DNA of 64,000 bases from positions 72,398 to 136,397 of the forward strand of contig CAKVLQ010000001.1 of assembly GCA_934757845.1 (NCBI GenBank), read 5' to 3'. The position numbers and the translations under genes were made by a program. Origin of the DNA: an uncultured Clostridia bacterium (GTDB lineage: Bacteria > Bacillota > Clostridia > Christensenellales > UBA1242). The notes below the pieces were generated by a model. The model saw only the letters and a list, made by a program, of their open reading frames with translations, searched no databases and had not been told where the DNA came from. This document shows positions 1-56,662 of the stretch, in pieces (within the stretch, counting starts at the first letter, position 1; the number at the start of each line of letters is the position of its first letter).

Positions 1-810
1 GAAGGAAATTACAAATTAAATAGTCCGCTTGAAATTCAAAATTCTAATATAGTTATAGGTGGCGAAGGAAAAGACAAAACTATTATTGATTCATTTGTTA
101 TTTTGGGTGGTTATTTAGATGCGGGAAGCATAAATTATTCAGGGACTATTGAAAATATCTCTTTTATTTCGGTTGGGTTTGAAACAAGAAACAGCACTGA
201 AAATAACATTATTAAGTTTGAAAATGAAAACCTTAATCAAGATTTTGCTTGCATAAATGCAAAAGATATTTCAAACTTAAATGTTTTATCTTGTGGTTTT
301 AAAGGCTATTCTTTGGCAATTAAAGCACAAAATTTGCAGAATGCTTTTATTTCTTCTAACACGATGAATTCGCTTTTGATTGGAGGAATTGAAACCACAA
401 ACAGTACTCAAAATGTTAGCATAAGCAAAAATATTATCAATATGATTGGAACAAATGTTGTTAATGTTTCAAAACAATCCTATCAAGACTATATTTTTGG
501 AATAAAACTTGCTCTTAACAGTGAAGATAATTTGGGAATATCAATTTATAAAAATTCTATTAGCAAAATTGCGGGAAAAACGGGCAGTTTAAAATATTTT
601 AATGAAAAAATTGAAGGCGATTTGAATGGCTTAAATTATATGAATAAAAGCGGTGCTATAATAATTTATAGCACTCTAAAAAACAATTTGCAAACCAAAG
701 GAGTTTCAATTTTCTTTAATTCGATTGGTGCAACTTTAAATAATATTTTGTATAACACAACAACTTCCAACAGAGTTAATTCAAGCAGTGTTATGTATAT
801 GTCTCTTTAA
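1..810 (+). CDS. Right-handed parallel beta-helix repeat protein, C-terminal part (5' end lies outside the window)
   Basis: Frame 1 is open from base 1, upstream of the listed ORF start at 103. The translation shows repetitive ~22-25 aa segments rich in N/I/G/S (NISFISVGF, NLNVLSCGF, NVSISKNIINMIG, ISIYKNSISKIAG) typical of pectate-lyase-like beta-helices. Confidence 0.5.
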   Translation, partial: EGNYKLNSPLEIQNSNIVIGGEGKDKTIIDSFVILGGYLDAGSINYSGTIENISFISVGFETRNSTENNIIKFENENLNQDFACINAKDISNLNVLSCGFKGYSLAIKAQNLQNAFISSNTMNSLLIGGIETTNSTQNVSISKNIINMIGTNVVNVSKQSYQDYIFGIKLALNSEDNLGISIYKNSISKIAGKTGSLKYFNEKIEGDLNGLNYMNKSGAIIIYSTLKNNLQTKGVSIFFNSIGATLNNILYNTTTSNRVNSSSVMYMSL

Positions 811-2908: not shown

Positions 2909-2920
2909 AAAAACACAAAG

Positions 2921-2946
2921 AAAAGCCTTATAAGGGCTTTTTTTAT
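2921..2946 (+). terminator. Rho-independent terminator after tRNA-Gly
   Basis: AAAAGCCTTATAAGGGCTTTT hairpin followed by a T-run. Confidence 0.7.
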
Positions 2947-3069
2947 AGTAAAATTGAACATCTTTGGAAATCGAACCATGGTTCGGTCCTGTCGGACCCA
3001 GACCGCAACAAGTTGCTCCCGGCTTTGGCTAAAAAAGCACATTTTGGTGCTTTTTCTTAACGCGTCGCC

Positions 3070-3088
3070 CCCATCACTCGCTCCAAAA
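3070..3088 (+). repeat. 19-bp exact duplicate of the tRNA-Gly 3' end (direct repeat of 2893-2911)
   Basis: CCCATCACTCGCTCCAAAA occurs at 2893-2911 (inside and just after the tRNA) and again at 3070-3088. Confidence 0.85.
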
Positions 3089-42002: not shown

Positions 42003-42344
42003 TGGTGGAGACGACGGGAGTTGAACCCGTGTCCGAACAAACGATATAAAATATTTCTACATACTTATAAAATTTTTGTTTTTGTTGTGTTTGATAAATT
42101 TTCAAAAACAAACATAACTTGCCAAAAGTGAAGAAAACAAACTTGGCAATTTGTTTAATTTACCACAATAAATTGAAACTTTATTAAACTTTTGTGGGAA
42201 ATTTAATAAAATTACTGCTTAAAATTAGCAAGCAGCGGCTTTTAAATTATTATTTGCGTTTATTTTTTTTGCCTTATTTGTGTGAACTGCCTCACAGTAT
42301 GCTTAACTTTACTCTGCTTTGTCCGTCGAAACCAAATCGTCCCC
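42003..42344 (-). ncRNA. ssrA: tmRNA (SsrA), one-piece
   Basis: The reverse complement starts GGGGACGATTTGGTTTCGACGG and ends GGACACGGGTTCAACTCCCGTCGTCTCCACCA. The acceptor stem has the G3:U pair. The internal tag frame is GCA AAA AAA ATA AAC GCA AAT AAT AAT TTA AAA GCC GCT GCT TGC TAA. Confidence 0.88.
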
Positions 42345-51922: not shown

Positions 51923-52000
51923 TGGGGTGAAATATCGGATTCGAACCGATGACCTCTGGTGCCACAAACCAGCGCTCTAACCAACTGAGCTAATCCCACC
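51923..52000 (-). tRNA. tRNA-His (anticodon GUG) with encoded G-1
   Basis: The reverse complement G-GTGGGAT...CTGGT-TTGTGGC-ACCAG...ATCGGTTCGAATCCGAT-ATTTCAC-C-CCA has the extra 5' G opposite discriminator C. Confidence 0.92.
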
Positions 52001-52136
52001 AAGATTAAACTATTTTACACAAAACTTTTTTTTTTGTCAAGGCTTTTAAATAAATTGTTAAATTAATAGAAAATTAAGTTAAAAAACAGCCCAAAAAAAT
52101 TAAAATAAAAAAAATTAAAAAATTTGTAAAAAATTA

Positions 52137-52165
52137 TTGACATTTTTTTTGAATTGTTTTATACT
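52137..52165 (+). promoter_or_regulatory. Sigma-A type promoter of the tRNA-Val/Leu/Lys cluster
   Basis: TTGACA (52137-52142), 17 nt, TATACT (52160-52165). Confidence 0.6.
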
Positions 52166-52193
52166 ATCAAAGTCGTTGAAAAACAAAAAGCGT

Positions 52194-52269
52194 GGAAGCT
52201 TAGCTCAGTTGGTAGAGCATCTGCCTTACAAGCAGGCGGTCATAGGTTCGAGTCCTATAGTTTCCACCA
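52194..52269 (+). tRNA. tRNA-Val (anticodon UAC)
   Basis: Acceptor GGAAGCT/AGTTTCC, anticodon loop CTTACAA, T-loop GGTTCGAGTCC, CCA. Confidence 0.92.
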
Positions 52270-52280
52270 CTATTTTTTAA

Positions 52281-52363
52281 GCGGGCATGGCGGAATTGGC
52301 AGACGCGCTAGACTTAGGATCTAGTTCGAGAGAGTGGGGGTTCAAGTCCCTTTGCCCGCACCA
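52281..52363 (+). tRNA. tRNA-Leu (anticodon UAG), long variable arm
   Basis: Acceptor GCGGGCA/TGCCCGC, anticodon arm CTAGA-CTTAGGA-TCTAG, CCA. Confidence 0.92.
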
Positions 52364-52384
52364 AAAAAATAAAACAAAAGATAA

Positions 52385-52568
52385 CTTAATCGGAAATATG
52401 ACTCATTAGCTCAGTTGGAACAGAACAAAAGCGCATCCAGTGGATGAAACAGCTTTTGTGGCAGTTCTTGGCTTTAACAAGCACTAAACCTTTATGGTTG
52501 CGGTGCGAAGATTAAAACAAGAGGAAGAGCTCGCTCTAACAACTGGGAAAATGAAAATCTTAATCGTT
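52385..52568 (+). pseudogene. Decayed upstream copy of tRNA-Lys: perfect 34-nt duplicate of leader plus tRNA 5' part, followed by 150 nt of structured, tRNA-arm-like debris
   Basis: CTTAATCGGAAATATGACTCATTAGCTCAGTTGG at 52385-52418 is identical to 52569-52602. Downstream, CTTGGCTTTAACAAG resembles a damaged Lys anticodon arm. Confidence 0.6.
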
Positions 52569-52583
52569 CTTAATCGGAAATAT

Positions 52584-52659
52584 GACTCATTAGCTCAGTT
52601 GGTAGAGCACCTGACTTTTAATCCGGTTGTCCCGAGTTCGAGTCTCGGATGAGTCACCA
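52584..52659 (+). tRNA. tRNA-Lys (anticodon UUU)
   Basis: Acceptor GACTCAT/ATGAGTC, anticodon loop CTTTTAA, T-arm CCGAG-TTCGAGT-CTCGG, CCA. There is one U:C mismatch (29:41) in the anticodon stem. Confidence 0.88.
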
Positions 52660-52853: not shown

Positions 52854-53321
52854 ATGTATAACCGAACAAAAGCGATTGAATATGCAAAAAAATATGCGTT
52901 TGAATATAACAAAAAATTTTATGATTTTAGTTTAATTGGTGGCGATTGCACTAATTTTGTTTCACAATGTTTAAATGCTGGTGGGATTTTGATGGATTTT
53001 TCTTTTGATGGGTGGTTTTATACAGATGCACAAAATCGAAGCCCAGCATGGACATCGGTTGAAGATTTTTGGAAATATGGGCTTAAAAATAAAAATTTGA
53101 AACTAAAAAAAGTGAACATTGAGCAAGTTGAAGTTGGCGATATTGTTCAATTTTTTGATATTAATCAAAACCGATATTATCATTGCGTGATTATAACAAA
53201 AATAATAAAACCAATATCAAAACAAAATATTTTTGTTGCAAGCCATGATAATAATGCTTTCAATAAAAGTTTGGCTCTTTATAATGTAAGCAATTTTAGG
53301 TTTGGGAAAATCATGAATTAA
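52854..53321 (+). CDS. Putative amidase-domain protein (Amidase_6 / NlpC-P60-like Cys-His fold)
   Basis: AIEYAKKYA...YNKKFYDF...GGDCTNFVSQCLNAGG...GWFY...SPAWTSV..FW...GDIVQF...HCVIIT follows the pattern of the putative amidase domain family. Confidence 0.65.
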   Translation: MYNRTKAIEYAKKYAFEYNKKFYDFSLIGGDCTNFVSQCLNAGGILMDFSFDGWFYTDAQNRSPAWTSVEDFWKYGLKNKNLKLKKVNIEQVEVGDIVQFFDINQNRYYHCVIITKIIKPISKQNIFVASHDNNAFNKSLALYNVSNFRFGKIMN

Positions 53322-53721
53322 AGAAAAATTTAATAAAAACACAATAAAAAAAAGAGCATATTAGTCAATACTGTTTGAAACTAGCAAAATATAAACACTT
53401 TAATTTATAAAAGATTAAGGTGTTTTTTTCACTCTCTTAACTGAAAACGAAACAAATACTTCTGGCGTTGTCAAGGATTGTCGCCAATAGCGACATGCAC
53501 TTTAACCTTGACAACAAAGAATATTTGTTTACCATAATAAAAAAGAGAAGAAAAATAATAGAAAAAGCGAAAGTGTGTTATGTTTACCAACACTTTCGCT
53601 TTTTGTCTGGTTTAATTTAGTTTATTAGTGTGTGCTTGTCTTCGGTGGAGCTTTAGCGTTCACCGACTTGTATCAAGACAAGCACACGTTTAAATGCCAA
53701 AATGAAATATTTTTTAAATTG

Positions 53722-53750
53722 TTGACTTTTTGCGAAATTTTGCATATAAT
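53722..53750 (+). promoter_or_regulatory. Near-consensus sigma-A promoter of the trpS leader
   Basis: TTGACT (53722-53727), 17 nt, TATAAT (53745-53750). Confidence 0.65.
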
Positions 53751-53778
53751 TATTACATCTTAAACAAAGGAGAAAAAT

Positions 53779-53811
53779 ATGTTAAATTCATTTATTTGGT
53801 GGCGTAAATAA
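53779..53811 (+). CDS. Candidate trpS leader peptide MLNSFIWWRK (tandem Trp codons)
   Basis: AAGGAG (53767-53772) lies 6 nt before ATG 53779. TGG TGG occupies 53797-53802 and the TAA stop 53809-53811, directly abutting the first hairpin arm. Confidence 0.6.
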   Translation: MLNSFIWWRK

Positions 53812-53907
53812 ATTAGCGTTCGCAAAAACACTATGTTTTGTGAATGCTTTTTCGTATGTCACAAAACATATAAATGGATTAAATATTCAATATATAAAAT
53901 CTACTAT

Positions 53908-53954
53908 AACCCGTTGGTATGTTTTGATTGTCAAAATAATCAACGGGTTTTTTA
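53908..53954 (+). terminator. Intrinsic terminator (attenuator) in the trpS leader
   Basis: AACCCGTTG ... CAACGGGTT stem with an internal TTTTGA/TCAAAA extension, followed by TTTTTT. It lies 26 nt upstream of the trpS ATG. Confidence 0.7.
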
Positions 53955-53979
53955 TTTTAAATTATGGAGATTTTATATT

Positions 53980-54969
53980 ATGAAAAAAACAATGTTAACA
54001 GGAGTTAGACCTAGCGGTAATCTAACATTAGGAAATTATTTGGGGGCAATTAAAAATTTTGTAGATAGACAAGAACAATACAATAGTTACATTTTTCTTG
54101 CAGATTTACACGCAATAACAAGCTATATAGAACCATGTAAATTGAAAAGTGCGGTTATGGATGCTGTAGCAATGTATTTGGCTTGTGGAGTTAATCCGGA
54201 CATTACAACTATATTTAAACAAAGTGATGTATTGGAGCATGGGACACTCGGATTTATAATGACATTCCAAACAAAAATGGGTGAATTATCACGTATGACG
54301 CAATTTAAGTATAAATCTCAGCAAAAATCAAAAGAAGGAGTTGATACAGGTTTATTTATTTATCCAACACTTATGGTCGCAGATATTTTGCTTTATAATA
54401 CTGCGATAGTCCCCGTTGGCAAAGACCAACAGCAACACGTTGAACTTACTCGCGATTTGGCTGAAAGATTTAACAAAAGATATGGTAAAACCTTTGAAAT
54501 GCCAGATGTATATGTAGCACCTGTTGGAAATAAAATATTAAATTTACAAAACCCATTAGAAAAAATGAATAAGTCTGACAGCGGTGAAAATAAGGGAACG
54601 ATTTTTCTTATGGACGATATTGAAGTTGCAAAAAAGAAAATAATGTCAGCTAAAACAGACAACTTAAATAAAGTTCACTTTGATGAAGATAATCAACCGG
54701 GCATTTCAAATCTTATGAGTATAATGAGCAAGATTACAAACGAAAGTTTTGAAAGTATTGAAAAAAGATATAACGGCAAAGGATATGGAGAATTCAAAAA
54801 AGAAGTTGCTAATATTGTTGCTGAATTATTGACAGATATACAAACGAAATATAAACATTATAACAATGAAGAATGTTTGAAAAAAATATTAACAAATGGG
54901 GCAAAACATGCTCAAATTGTTGCAAAAGAAACCTTGAAACGTGCAACTATATCGCTAGGATTAAATTAA
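53980..54969 (+). CDS. trpS: Tryptophan--tRNA ligase
   Basis: GVRPSGNLTLGNYLG (HIGH-region variant), DQQQHVELTRD, KMNKS (KMSKS). ATG 53980 follows a GGAGA RBS. The longer ORF-track start at 53833 lies inside the leader hairpins. Confidence 0.95.
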   Translation: MKKTMLTGVRPSGNLTLGNYLGAIKNFVDRQEQYNSYIFLADLHAITSYIEPCKLKSAVMDAVAMYLACGVNPDITTIFKQSDVLEHGTLGFIMTFQTKMGELSRMTQFKYKSQQKSKEGVDTGLFIYPTLMVADILLYNTAIVPVGKDQQQHVELTRDLAERFNKRYGKTFEMPDVYVAPVGNKILNLQNPLEKMNKSDSGENKGTIFLMDDIEVAKKKIMSAKTDNLNKVHFDEDNQPGISNLMSIMSKITNESFESIEKRYNGKGYGEFKKEVANIVAELLTDIQTKYKHYNNEECLKKILTNGAKHAQIVAKETLKRATISLGLN

Positions 54970-54971
54970 AT

Positions 54972-55006
54972 AAAAAGACATAAGAATTAATCTTCTTATG
55001 TCTTTT
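54972..55006. terminator. Bidirectional terminator between convergent trpS and lysK
   Basis: AAAAAGACATAAGAA-ttaatc-TTCTTATGTCTTTTT. Confidence 0.75.
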
Positions 55007-55096
55007 TCGCTAGTTTCAATTATCTTAGCCCTTAGGTTTGCTCTTTTTTATTAGTGAAATAAAATTTTCATTTTTTTAATATAATTAATTTATAAA

Positions 55097-56662
55097 TTAA
55101 ACATTCAAGAGTTTCAAATAATCTTCTTTGTTTGCTGCGCTAAAGAACAAATAAAGTCTTGGTCCGTCATCTCTACCAAACAATAGGTTATAGAATATTT
55201 TAAAATAAGATTGTTGAAGAGCCATGTTTTCTTTTTTAGACAATTCTGGATTGTTGATTATGTCATAAAGATATTGTTGAACTTCTTTTTCTTTAACTTC
55301 ATTTTGAGTTAAATAGTTATAAAGTTTTTTAACAACTTCTTTTTGCGTTTCTGTTAATGAACTTGCAAAATCAGCATTAAAACTATCCAAAAGTTTATAC
55401 ATTTTTTGTGGCATATAAGTTTTAATCCAATATTCCGCACGGGTTAGCCTATCAAAACTATCTTCTTCAAACTCTACACCTGCTTTATTAAGACAATATT
55501 TAACTTTGTCAAGTTTAAAATCAACAATAGGGGCGATTGAAGCAATCGTTCCAAATGGGGTTTTTACTTTGTTTTCATTTTTAATCAAAACAAGGTCAAA
55601 CAGGTCTTTAACAAATTCATCACAAGTTCCGTCAAGATATTGAGCAAGGTTTTTATCAAATTCAGAATAGTGTCTAATAATTGTTTCGTCAAAATAAAAA
55701 TTATAAGCATCTTTTGGTTCATATTTGCAAAACAACCATCTCAAAATTTCTGGTTCATAAAGTTTTAGGGCATTATTTGGTGTTATATTAATTCCGCTTG
55801 AACTATGCATAGAACTTACGCCTTGAAAGCCAAGCCAACCATATCCTTGAAAAACTGGGGCAGGATAAGACCAAATTTGTGGGCTTAAAACTGTGTCAAC
55901 ATCATAACTTCCACCGCTTGCTGCGTGGTCAATTCCACCTGCTTCAAAGTCAACATTTTCCATTTTCCAACGCATTGGCCAGTCAACTTTCCAAATAAGT
56001 TTTATTCTGTAATATTCCAAAACATTAACAGTTTCTTCTTTTCCGCATTCACGGCAATAATAAGTAAGTTCATGAGTTTGTGGGTTATAATTTGTAACTT
56101 TTGTTGCGTCTTTAAAACAACCACTGCAATAAACACTAACAGGATAATAATTTTCACGGTCTTGATTGTTGGCTTCTTGTGTTTTAAAACTCATCAAAAT
56201 GTCATAAATATCTTTTCGTTTTTCAAGAGCATAAGCAACATTTTTTGCGTATCTTCCGCTTAAATATTCTTTGGTTTGATATCTAACTTCATAATCAATT
56301 CCCAAAACTTTAAGTGCTTGTTCAAATTCTTTTTCAAAATAACTTGCATAAGTTTCATTTTCGTCAAAAGGGCAAGGAATTTGAGAATAAGGCATTCCAA
56401 TATATTTTTCAAATCCACTAACAAAATTGCTAACATTAACAGGAACTTTTCTTAACCTATCAAAATCGTCCCACGAAAACAAAAGTTTTGCTTTCTTGCC
56501 AAGTTTTTTAAGAGCTTTGCACACAAAATAAGGTATTGCAATATCCCTAAAATTGCCAACATGCACACTTCCTGATGGACTTATACCTGCTGCACAAACA
56601 TATTCTTCTTTATTTGGATTTCTTTCAATCACTTTTAATGCTATTTTTTCACTCCAATGCAT
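55097..56662 (-). CDS. lysK: Lysine--tRNA ligase, class I (LysK-type)
   Basis: About 520 aa. GISPSGSVHVGNFRD (HIGH-like), the Cys cluster CSGC...CRECG, and the SSMHSSSG (KMSKS-equivalent) region are typical of class I LysRS rather than class II LysS. Confidence 0.8.
   Translation of the reverse strand: MHWSEKIALKVIERNPNKEEYVCAAGISPSGSVHVGNFRDIAIPYFVCKALKKLGKKAKLLFSWDDFDRLRKVPVNVSNFVSGFEKYIGMPYSQIPCPFDENETYASYFEKEFEQALKVLGIDYEVRYQTKEYLSGRYAKNVAYALEKRKDIYDILMSFKTQEANNQDRENYYPVSVYCSGCFKDATKVTNYNPQTHELTYYCRECGKEETVNVLEYYRIKLIWKVDWPMRWKMENVDFEAGGIDHAASGGSYDVDTVLSPQIWSYPAPVFQGYGWLGFQGVSSMHSSSGINITPNNALKLYEPEILRWLFCKYEPKDAYNFYFDETIIRHYSEFDKNLAQYLDGTCDEFVKDLFDLVLIKNENKVKTPFGTIASIAPIVDFKLDKVKYCLNKAGVEFEEDSFDRLTRAEYWIKTYMPQKMYKLLDSFNADFASSLTETQKEVVKKLYNYLTQNEVKEKEVQQYLYDIINNPELSKKENMALQQSYFKIFYNLLFGRDDGPRLYLFFSAANKEDYLKLLNV

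Follow-up and report, generated by a model that had tools for sequence, protein, structure and literature searches.

A trpS leader predicted to act as a tryptophan-codon transcription attenuator in an uncultured Clostridia bacterium, and the family of leaders to which it belongs

The gene for tryptophanyl-tRNA synthetase (TrpRS), trpS, is usually controlled by a T-box in Firmicutes, and the question raised by the locus described here is what controls it when a structured leader of another kind stands in that place. The locus lies in a window of 64,000 nucleotides (64 kb; GC content 30%) of contig CAKVLQ010000001.1 from an uncultured Clostridia bacterium, and the element in question is the leader immediately upstream of trpS. 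An initial annotation, made from the DNA letters without database searches, had read this leader as an attenuator built around a short open reading frame (ORF) with two Trp codons. We conclude that trpS is very probably controlled by a ribosome-mediated (leader-peptide) transcription attenuator which senses charged tRNA-Trp.

The elements of the leader are listed in Table 1. The promoter, the mini-ORF preceded by a Shine–Dalgarno (SD) sequence and containing adjacent TGG codons, and the intrinsic terminator (stem 53908-53949 followed by six T residues) just before the ribosome-binding site of trpS are all where the initial annotation had placed them. The two perfect pairings that it had seen are exact reverse complements, of 11 nt between ATGTTTTGTGA (53833-43) and TCACAAAACAT (53859-69) and of 9 nt between CAAAACATA (53862-70) and TATGTTTTG (53918-26). 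Hairpin 1:2 exists, although the coordinates given for it were off by 1-2 nt, and the downstream gene is indeed trpS, its product scoring 331.8 bits against NCBIfam TIGR00233 (cut-off 176.75), but it starts at 53980 and not at 53981. Two features had been overlooked. One is helix 0:3, which encloses hairpin 1:2 and is part of the minimum free energy (MFE) fold. The other is an extension of antiterminator 3:4 onto the CCCGUU arm of the terminator: the 9-nt core already proposed is exact, but in the stalled state the pairing is longer, comprising a 10-bp core (CAAAACAUAU:GUAUGUUUUG) and AAUGG:CCGUU, and covers both halves of the terminator 5' arm. The leader has a folding energy of −70.2 kcal/mol compared with −34.6 ± 3.7 for shuffled sequences (z = −9.7), and of the SD-led mini-ORFs with 5-20 codons, of which the whole window has 20, only that of the trpS leader contains a WW pair. 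In the full-length fold the SD of trpS itself pairs with AAAAUCU, a motif not kept before the other regulated genes.

The scheme that we propose for the switch runs as follows. Transcription would start at about 53757 and the 10-codon leader would be translated. When Trp-tRNA is scarce, the ribosome would stall when a TGG codon (53797-53802) occupies the A site, covering segment 0, and its front edge would stop 3-5 nt short of hairpin 1:2, which would stay folded. With neither decoy, segment 0 or segment 2, available, segment 3 (53862-53881) would pair with the nascent terminator 5' arm and transcription would read through into trpS. When Trp-tRNA is plentiful, the ribosome would reach the stop codon and melt hairpin 1:2 in its lower half; segment 2, now free, would capture segment 3, the terminator would fold and transcription would stop at the T-run. 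Hairpin 1:2 would thereby act as a relay, in that a ribosome at the stop codon cannot itself reach segment 3 but can release segment 2 to do so. Since the leader ORF pairs with segment 3, an untranslated leader would terminate as well, segment 0 taking the place of segment 2 as the captor. The U-run that follows hairpin 1:2 is suggested to provide a hairpin-stabilised pause which lets the ribosome catch up. We infer the ribosome footprint, the co-transcriptional kinetic competition, the pausing at hairpin 1:2 with its U-run, and the response to tRNA charging.

Relatives of the locus were sought in one genome per species. About 45 TrpRS genes of 69-99% identity were recovered, all in uncultured low-GC gut metagenome-assembled genomes (MAGs) labelled Clostridia, Bacilli, Ca. 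Caccovivens or Christensenella sp. One TrpRS (L023) is 99% identical to that of the window and one leader (L237) encodes the same peptide, and from these sequences the window and MAG CAKVHY01 appear to belong to the same species. The leader, with a peptide of the form M-F-[NS]-S-F-I-W-W-R-x, is found directly upstream of the TrpRS gene at 36 of these loci, out of the ~40 with the closest TrpRS. In the exceptions trpS stands behind trpB; in two of them the leader precedes trpB, and the third ends at the contig end. A pattern scan for three complementary elements followed by nhmmer filtering gave 73 distinct full-length leaders. The WW mini-ORF and hairpins, whose conservation upstream of related trpS had been proposed as a check, thus recur directly at 36 loci, and the mini-ORF with its helices in 73 leaders overall. 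A looser pattern (23 specified bases) gave mostly chance matches in unrelated phyla among the matches listed. Leader peptides were read from the aligned ATG, which is invariant (73/73) and has an SD 4-mer 4-18 nt before it in 72 of the 73 leaders; 67 of 69 homologous leaders are preceded by a promoter-like TTGnnn-16..18-TAnnnT, whose −10 element ends at a median distance of 28 nt from the ATG. The homologous leaders share descent and such counts overstate the number of independent events. In one trpS leader (L036:1348-1424) an insertion of ~80 nt lies between segment 3 and the terminator and splits the match to the hidden Markov model in two; the antiterminator there would have to bridge a far bigger loop.

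The regulatory codons lie at positions 7-10 of the mini-ORF; they differ according to the gene that follows, on an RNA scaffold that is the same throughout. Tryptophan-related genes follow 54 of the leaders (trpS 35, interrupted trpS 2, divergent second TrpRS 2, trpB 15), every one of which has at least two Trp codons, arranged as WW in 51 and as W-x-W in 3. Seventeen leaders precede the gene of an M20 ArgE/DapE-like deacylase and carry 1-3 His codons with 0-2 Trp codons (WHWH, WHH, LHH, WHHH and others). A single leader, with the peptide MFNSFICCCC, precedes a CysK-like gene, and another single leader, with MVYSFVLLHHHR, precedes a SLOG-family gene. Of all the evidence, we regard this match between codon and gene as the strongest indication that the mini-ORF is translated and its codons would act as the sensor.

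The genes behind the variant leaders deserve a closer description. The trpB genes, preceded by WW or WWW (L132, L142, L031, L024, L107, L182, L228-L230, L221, L212, L208, L217, L233 and L207), belong to the TIGR00263 equivalog (536 bits), and the gene order is leader-trpB-trpS in L031 and L024. None of the six sampled genes following trpB is trpA, and this trpB may be a stand-alone indole-salvage enzyme. The M20 deacylase (L097, L201, L125, L168, L209, L234, L138, L135, L231, L232, L086, L093, L213, L215, L110, L236 and L204) has 357-368 residues and scores below all NCBIfam cut-offs. The presence of His codons in 17 of its 17 leader peptides, for example MFNSFNLWHWHK and MFNSVMFLHHKN, suggests that the enzyme supplies His and/or Trp. 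One of these loci has tandem leaders before a single M20 gene (L204:2625-2792 and 2913-3074; MKNLVILWHRDRRI and MKILFATWHRR), the first with its own terminator. The MFNSFICCCC leader (L227:2214-2426, minus strand) stands before a cysteine-synthase-like gene that scores 293 bits with cysKM (cut-off 344) and, judged by its codons, is a natural specificity swap to cysteine. The leader of the SLOG gene (L030:987-1173, minus strand) is the second of its locus; it precedes the gene of a 182-residue SLOG cluster-4 family protein and lies back-to-back with a divergent trpS leader (L030:1310-1501). In two MAGs (L043:229-2118 and L076; likewise L137 and L194) the trpS behind the leader is broken after ~70 residues by ~0.9 kb. 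The insert in L043 and L076 carries a 244-residue lipoprotein-like ORF, TrpRS residues 125-329 resuming at 1501, and the interrupted trpS might reflect a pseudogene, an insertion or an assembly error.

If the codons are the sensor, the position of the ribosome should decide which helix forms. Nascent transcripts truncated just after segment 4 were folded with the bases covered by the ribosome masked, using an assumed footprint from −12 to +15 relative to the P-site, the conventional value from toeprint knowledge. In 32 of 32 WW leaders the second Trp codon ends 12-15 nt short of the base of hairpin 1:2, and the stop codon ends 0-4 nt from the hairpin; with the assumed footprint, a ribosome at the Trp codon spares hairpin 1:2 and one at the stop codon opens 4-9 bp of it. 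Antiterminator 3:4 has a probability above 0.5 in 71 of the 73 leaders when the ribosome sits at codon 8, in 4 when it sits at the stop codon and in 7 without a ribosome, whilst helix 2:3 passes the same mark in 69 when the ribosome is at the stop codon. Moving the footprint edge between +11 and +17 does not alter this three-state result. The stall and stop-codon logic of the initial annotation is thus reproduced for the window and for the 73 homologous leaders, and it is further backed by the change of codons with the regulated gene and by the conservation and compensatory changes of the helices.

Pairing in these helices was counted on the 73-sequence alignment, and RNAalifold was run on an alignment of 33 sequences. 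Helix 0:3 is 83-88% paired with compensatory changes at 15 pairs, hairpin 1:2 is 95.6% paired with 5 such pairs, and the terminator is 84% paired with 8, all in the outer stem. The core of 2:3 is ~100% paired (compensatory changes at 2 core pairs), and the 10-bp core of 3:4 is paired in all 73, one pair changing from C-G to U-A in 3 sequences. When the partners are slid by 1-3 columns, pairing falls to 25-70%. RNAalifold independently returns 0:3, 1:2 and the terminator together. The inner 5' arm of the terminator, UAUGUUUU, is invariant even though 27-29 of the 73 sequences leave its 3' partner unpaired, which indicates that a constraint other than the terminator acts on it. For the small hairpin in the antiterminator loop (53875-80/53898-903), pairing-preserving changes were seen by eye in L012, L019 and L021.

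Table 1 Features of the trpS leader and their positions in the window
Feature	Position	Strand	Details
Promoter, sigma-70-type	53722-53750	+	TTGACT-17-TATAAT; 11/12 consensus matches
Leader-ORF Shine–Dalgarno	53766-53773	+	AAAGGAGA; GGAG at 53769-53772, 6 nt 5' of ATG
Leader ORF	53779-53811	+	MLNSFIWWRK + stop, 10 codons; ATG 53779; TGG TGG 53797-53802; stop codon 53809-53811
Segment 0 (leader coding region)	53779-53806	+	Partner 53855-53886 (helix 0:3); MFE fold
Hairpin 1:2	53815-53848	+	53815-27 with 53836-48, 13 bp
U-run after hairpin 1:2	53848-53852	+	Starts at last paired base of hairpin 1:2
Helix 2:3	53832-53870	+	53832-43 with 53859-70, plus 53844-47 with 53854-57
Antiterminator 3:4	53862-53926	+	53862-71/53917-26, 53873-77/53911-15, 53879-81/53907-09; stalled-ribosome fold
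Small local hairpin within antiterminator loop	53875-53903	+	53875-80 with 53898-903; constrained folds
Intrinsic terminator	53908-53958	+	53908-18/53939-49 + 53920-27/53931-38 (19-bp stem); T6 at 53948-53953, then more T
trpS Shine–Dalgarno	53966-53969	+	GGAG; nearly invariant in leader alignments
trpS, tryptophan--tRNA ligase	53980-54969	+	329 residues; TIGR00233 equivalog; Pfam tRNA-synt_1b

The helices also bear on what makes the ribosome stall. The N terminus of the peptide, M-F-[NS]-S-F-[IM], is unusually conserved for a classical leader peptide and Arg usually follows WW, features that might be expected of a nascent arrest peptide, the sequence of which, and not the supply of charged tRNA-Trp, stalls the ribosome from within the exit tunnel (as TnaC does with free tryptophan and Erm leaders with drugs) and would operate the same RNA switch. 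The same nucleotides, however, form helix 0:3 and are compensated on the partner strand (columns 40/109, G-C to A-U in 11 sequences), so that the N-terminal conservation is explained at the RNA level. The residues themselves vary, with F/L/V/I, N/S/T/I/H/Y/R and S/L/R/T/P among residues 2-4 and F/L/N/Y and I/M/A/T/S/V/N/G/K at residues 5-6, and the positions that track the gene are W, H and C, as sensing of hungry codons predicts. Peptides of the TnaC type are defined by a length of ~24 residues and by conserved Trp, Asp and Pro residues set at constant distances from their stop codon (W12/D16/P24 in TnaC); the 10-residue peptide of the window is far shorter and does not share this spacing, and the family as a whole has peptides of 10-12 residues with no conserved Asp or Pro. 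We therefore think it very unlikely that stalling is by an arrest peptide.

Several points weigh against control by an attenuator of the kind proposed. The analysis is wholly in silico and all of the sequences come from MAGs. The cores of 2:3 and 3:4 are almost invariant and their covariation is thin; the compensatory pair of 3:4 (3 sequences) is probably one event, and shuffle controls for 2:3 and 3:4 are only marginal. Weak covariation follows from the near-invariance of the cores, which is expected for strands under a three-way constraint. The full-length MFE fold always holds the terminator, whatever is masked, so the check by constrained folding that had been suggested does not separate the states at full length, and it was the truncated nascent transcripts that did so. 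With the terminator thermodynamically favoured at full length, the outcome has to be settled kinetically, as it is elsewhere in attenuators, and the kinetic trapping on which read-through depends is modelled here by transcript truncation only. Coupling of transcription and translation is reported to be poor in Bacillus subtilis and, if that applies here, a pause would be needed. Finally, hairpin 1:2 with its U5 itself scores as terminator-like, and if termination there were efficient it would act in the starved state and oppose induction.

The last point can be turned into an explanation of its own, in which hairpin 1:2 and its U-run are a first terminator or strong pause relieved by translation, the leader senses general translation capacity and the second terminator serves as constitutive leakage control. 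The terminator-like score of the hairpin with TTTTT and the conservation of the U-run (>90% across the leader family) are in keeping with this. It leaves unexplained the invariant three-way complementarity of segments 2, 3 and 4, the Trp/His/Cys specificity of the codons, and the opposite outcomes for 3:4 with a stalled ribosome and with one at the stop codon, and we give it very little credence; a role of hairpin 1:2 in pausing alone is compatible with the attenuator and is not a true rival to it.

The known RNA regulators of trp genes were sought by Rfam scans of the whole window at the gathering score and of 53400-54100 at E ≤ 10. Neither scan gave a match to Trp_leader (RF00513) or, as the initial annotation had expected, to the T-box (RF00230); the 23 matches in 53400-54100 at E ≤ 10 are chance-level microRNA and small RNA matches only. 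The search is sensitive enough for a T-box, since it finds, at 102-105 bits, those that directly precede the closest outgroup TrpRS genes (L040 and L041, 53% identity). Leaders regulated by TRAP, as in the Bacillus trp operon, have 9-11 (G/U)AG triplets spaced by 2-3 nt; the 230 nt of 53751-53980 contain three widely spaced GAG/TAG triplets, and a TRAP site was ruled out. The least probable of the explanations considered is therefore that the leader is a riboswitch or protein-binding RNA (T-box, TRAP-like or with some other ligand) and the mini-ORF incidental: the usual T-box control of Firmicute trpS, the outgroup T-boxes and the highly structured RNA are set against the lack of any such family or triplet array in these scans, the retention, in 72-73 of 73 leaders, of SD, ATG, in-frame stop codon and a constant distance to hairpin 1:2, and codons that switch with the regulated gene on a constant scaffold, as they would not in a ligand-binding RNA. 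What the leader does have is a mini-ORF with its own ribosome-binding site, codons matched to the gene, a terminator and, in silico, an antiterminator that depends on the position of the ribosome, and these are the features of an attenuator.

Attenuation by a leader peptide is a textbook mechanism, and the comparison with its best-known example is close in principle. Like the E. coli trpL leader (RF00513), the classical four-segment case, the present leader has an SD-led short ORF with two adjacent Trp codons, its coding segment pairs with a downstream segment that can alternatively form an antiterminator with the terminator 5' arm, and the untranslated leader terminates (in the model, in our case); segments 0, 3, 4 and 5 here correspond to segments 1, 2, 3 and 4 of E. 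coli trp. Unlike trpL, with which there is no sequence or covariance-model similarity (no match at E ≤ 10), it has the extra hairpin 1:2 inside the 0:3 loop, a ribosome at the stop codon would act through the decoy segment 2 rather than directly on the antiterminator strand, the target is an aminoacyl-tRNA synthetase gene, and the host belongs to a low-GC Firmicute-type gut lineage. The T-box, in comparison, responds to the same signal, tRNA-Trp charging, and with the same result, a terminator in front of trpS that is read through, but it binds uncharged tRNA directly and does not need translation.

Attenuation of trpS is not itself without precedent. The initial annotation knew of none, and in this it was wrong, an attenuator having been predicted for trpS2 of Streptomyces avermitilis (PMC1262725). 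The Streptomyces systems resemble the present one in placing a TrpRS gene under a Trp-codon leader peptide and a terminator/antiterminator switch; they belong to high-GC Actinobacteria and serve an auxiliary, antibiotic-resistant second TrpRS, whereas here it is the clade's TrpRS gene that is controlled (some relatives also carry a divergent second TrpRS). Given the difference in composition, kinship in sequence with the Streptomyces leaders is unlikely. Ribosome-mediated attenuation of an auxiliary trpRS gene is reportedly the subject of Vecchione & Sello 2010 (J Bacteriol 192:3565; reference 57 of PMC4787780), said to concern trpRS1 of S. coelicolor. The pheST operon of E. coli is an aminoacyl-tRNA synthetase operon with leader-peptide attenuation (PMC1262725); it differs from the present leader in its Phe codons, its gamma-proteobacterial host and its classical four-segment layout. 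The same 2005 survey recorded no aminoacyl-tRNA synthetase gene of a Firmicute known to use classical attenuation (PMC1262725). Attenuators with His leaders have been predicted for his operons in the Bacillus cereus group, Peptostreptococcaceae and Erysipelotrichales (PMC9413887). By their description these are alike in being leader-peptide attenuators of Firmicutes that have taken over from T-box or repressor control in certain lineages, and unlike in that they govern biosynthetic operons and not aminoacyl-tRNA synthetases. Literature searches found nothing on the present scaffold, and no Rfam family matches it. What is new here is the unrelated sequence family, the relay architecture, the Firmicute-type aminoacyl-tRNA synthetase target and the natural specificity swaps; the principle is already known.

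With a classical mechanism the conceptual advance is modest. In a Firmicute-type lineage, near-universal T-box control of trpS would have been replaced by attenuation coupled to translation. The Trp, His and Cys variants on one scaffold would offer a ready-made test of hungry codons and a compact design for synthetic amino-acid sensors, and the leader gives a regulatory handle for annotating the stand-alone trpB, the M20 deacylase and the SLOG protein in uncultured gut bacteria.

From the copies of the scaffold with codons for Trp (trpS, trpB), for His with or without Trp (M20 deacylase, SLOG protein) and for Cys (CysK-like gene), we tentatively raise the possibility, to which we would not yet commit ourselves, that it is a lineage-specific, plug-and-play amino-acid sensor, a six-segment RNA relay that takes its specificity from 2-4 codons at positions 7-10. 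If so, the leaders would define a small regulon responding to amino-acid starvation in uncultured gut bacteria that are probably auxotrophic, with salvage roles for the M20 enzyme (His/Trp from acylated or peptide forms) and for trpB on its own (indole to Trp). The conserved hairpin with its U-run would serve as an in-built pause at which ribosome and polymerase, in a host of the Firmicute type, get back in step.

Further features were noted around the leader. Upstream of the promoter, after a long non-coding stretch that follows an ORF ending at 53321, are two strong hairpins, a terminator-like stem with a T-run (53556-53606; GCGAAAGTGTGT...ACACTTTCGCTTTTT), which has a weak, chance-level match to BTnc060, and a stem richer in G+C (53624-53693; GTGTGCTTGTC...GACAAGCACAC). 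Some 1-2 kb before the leader there is a cluster of four tRNA genes (51926-52656), and the tmRNA gene is found at 42003-42344 (minus strand). Convergent with trpS is a gene for a class I (archaeal-type) lysyl-tRNA synthetase (55097-56662, minus strand; TIGR00467, 354 bits), an enzyme unusual for a Firmicute-type genome, and a terminator-like hairpin at 54972-55007 is common to the two genes.

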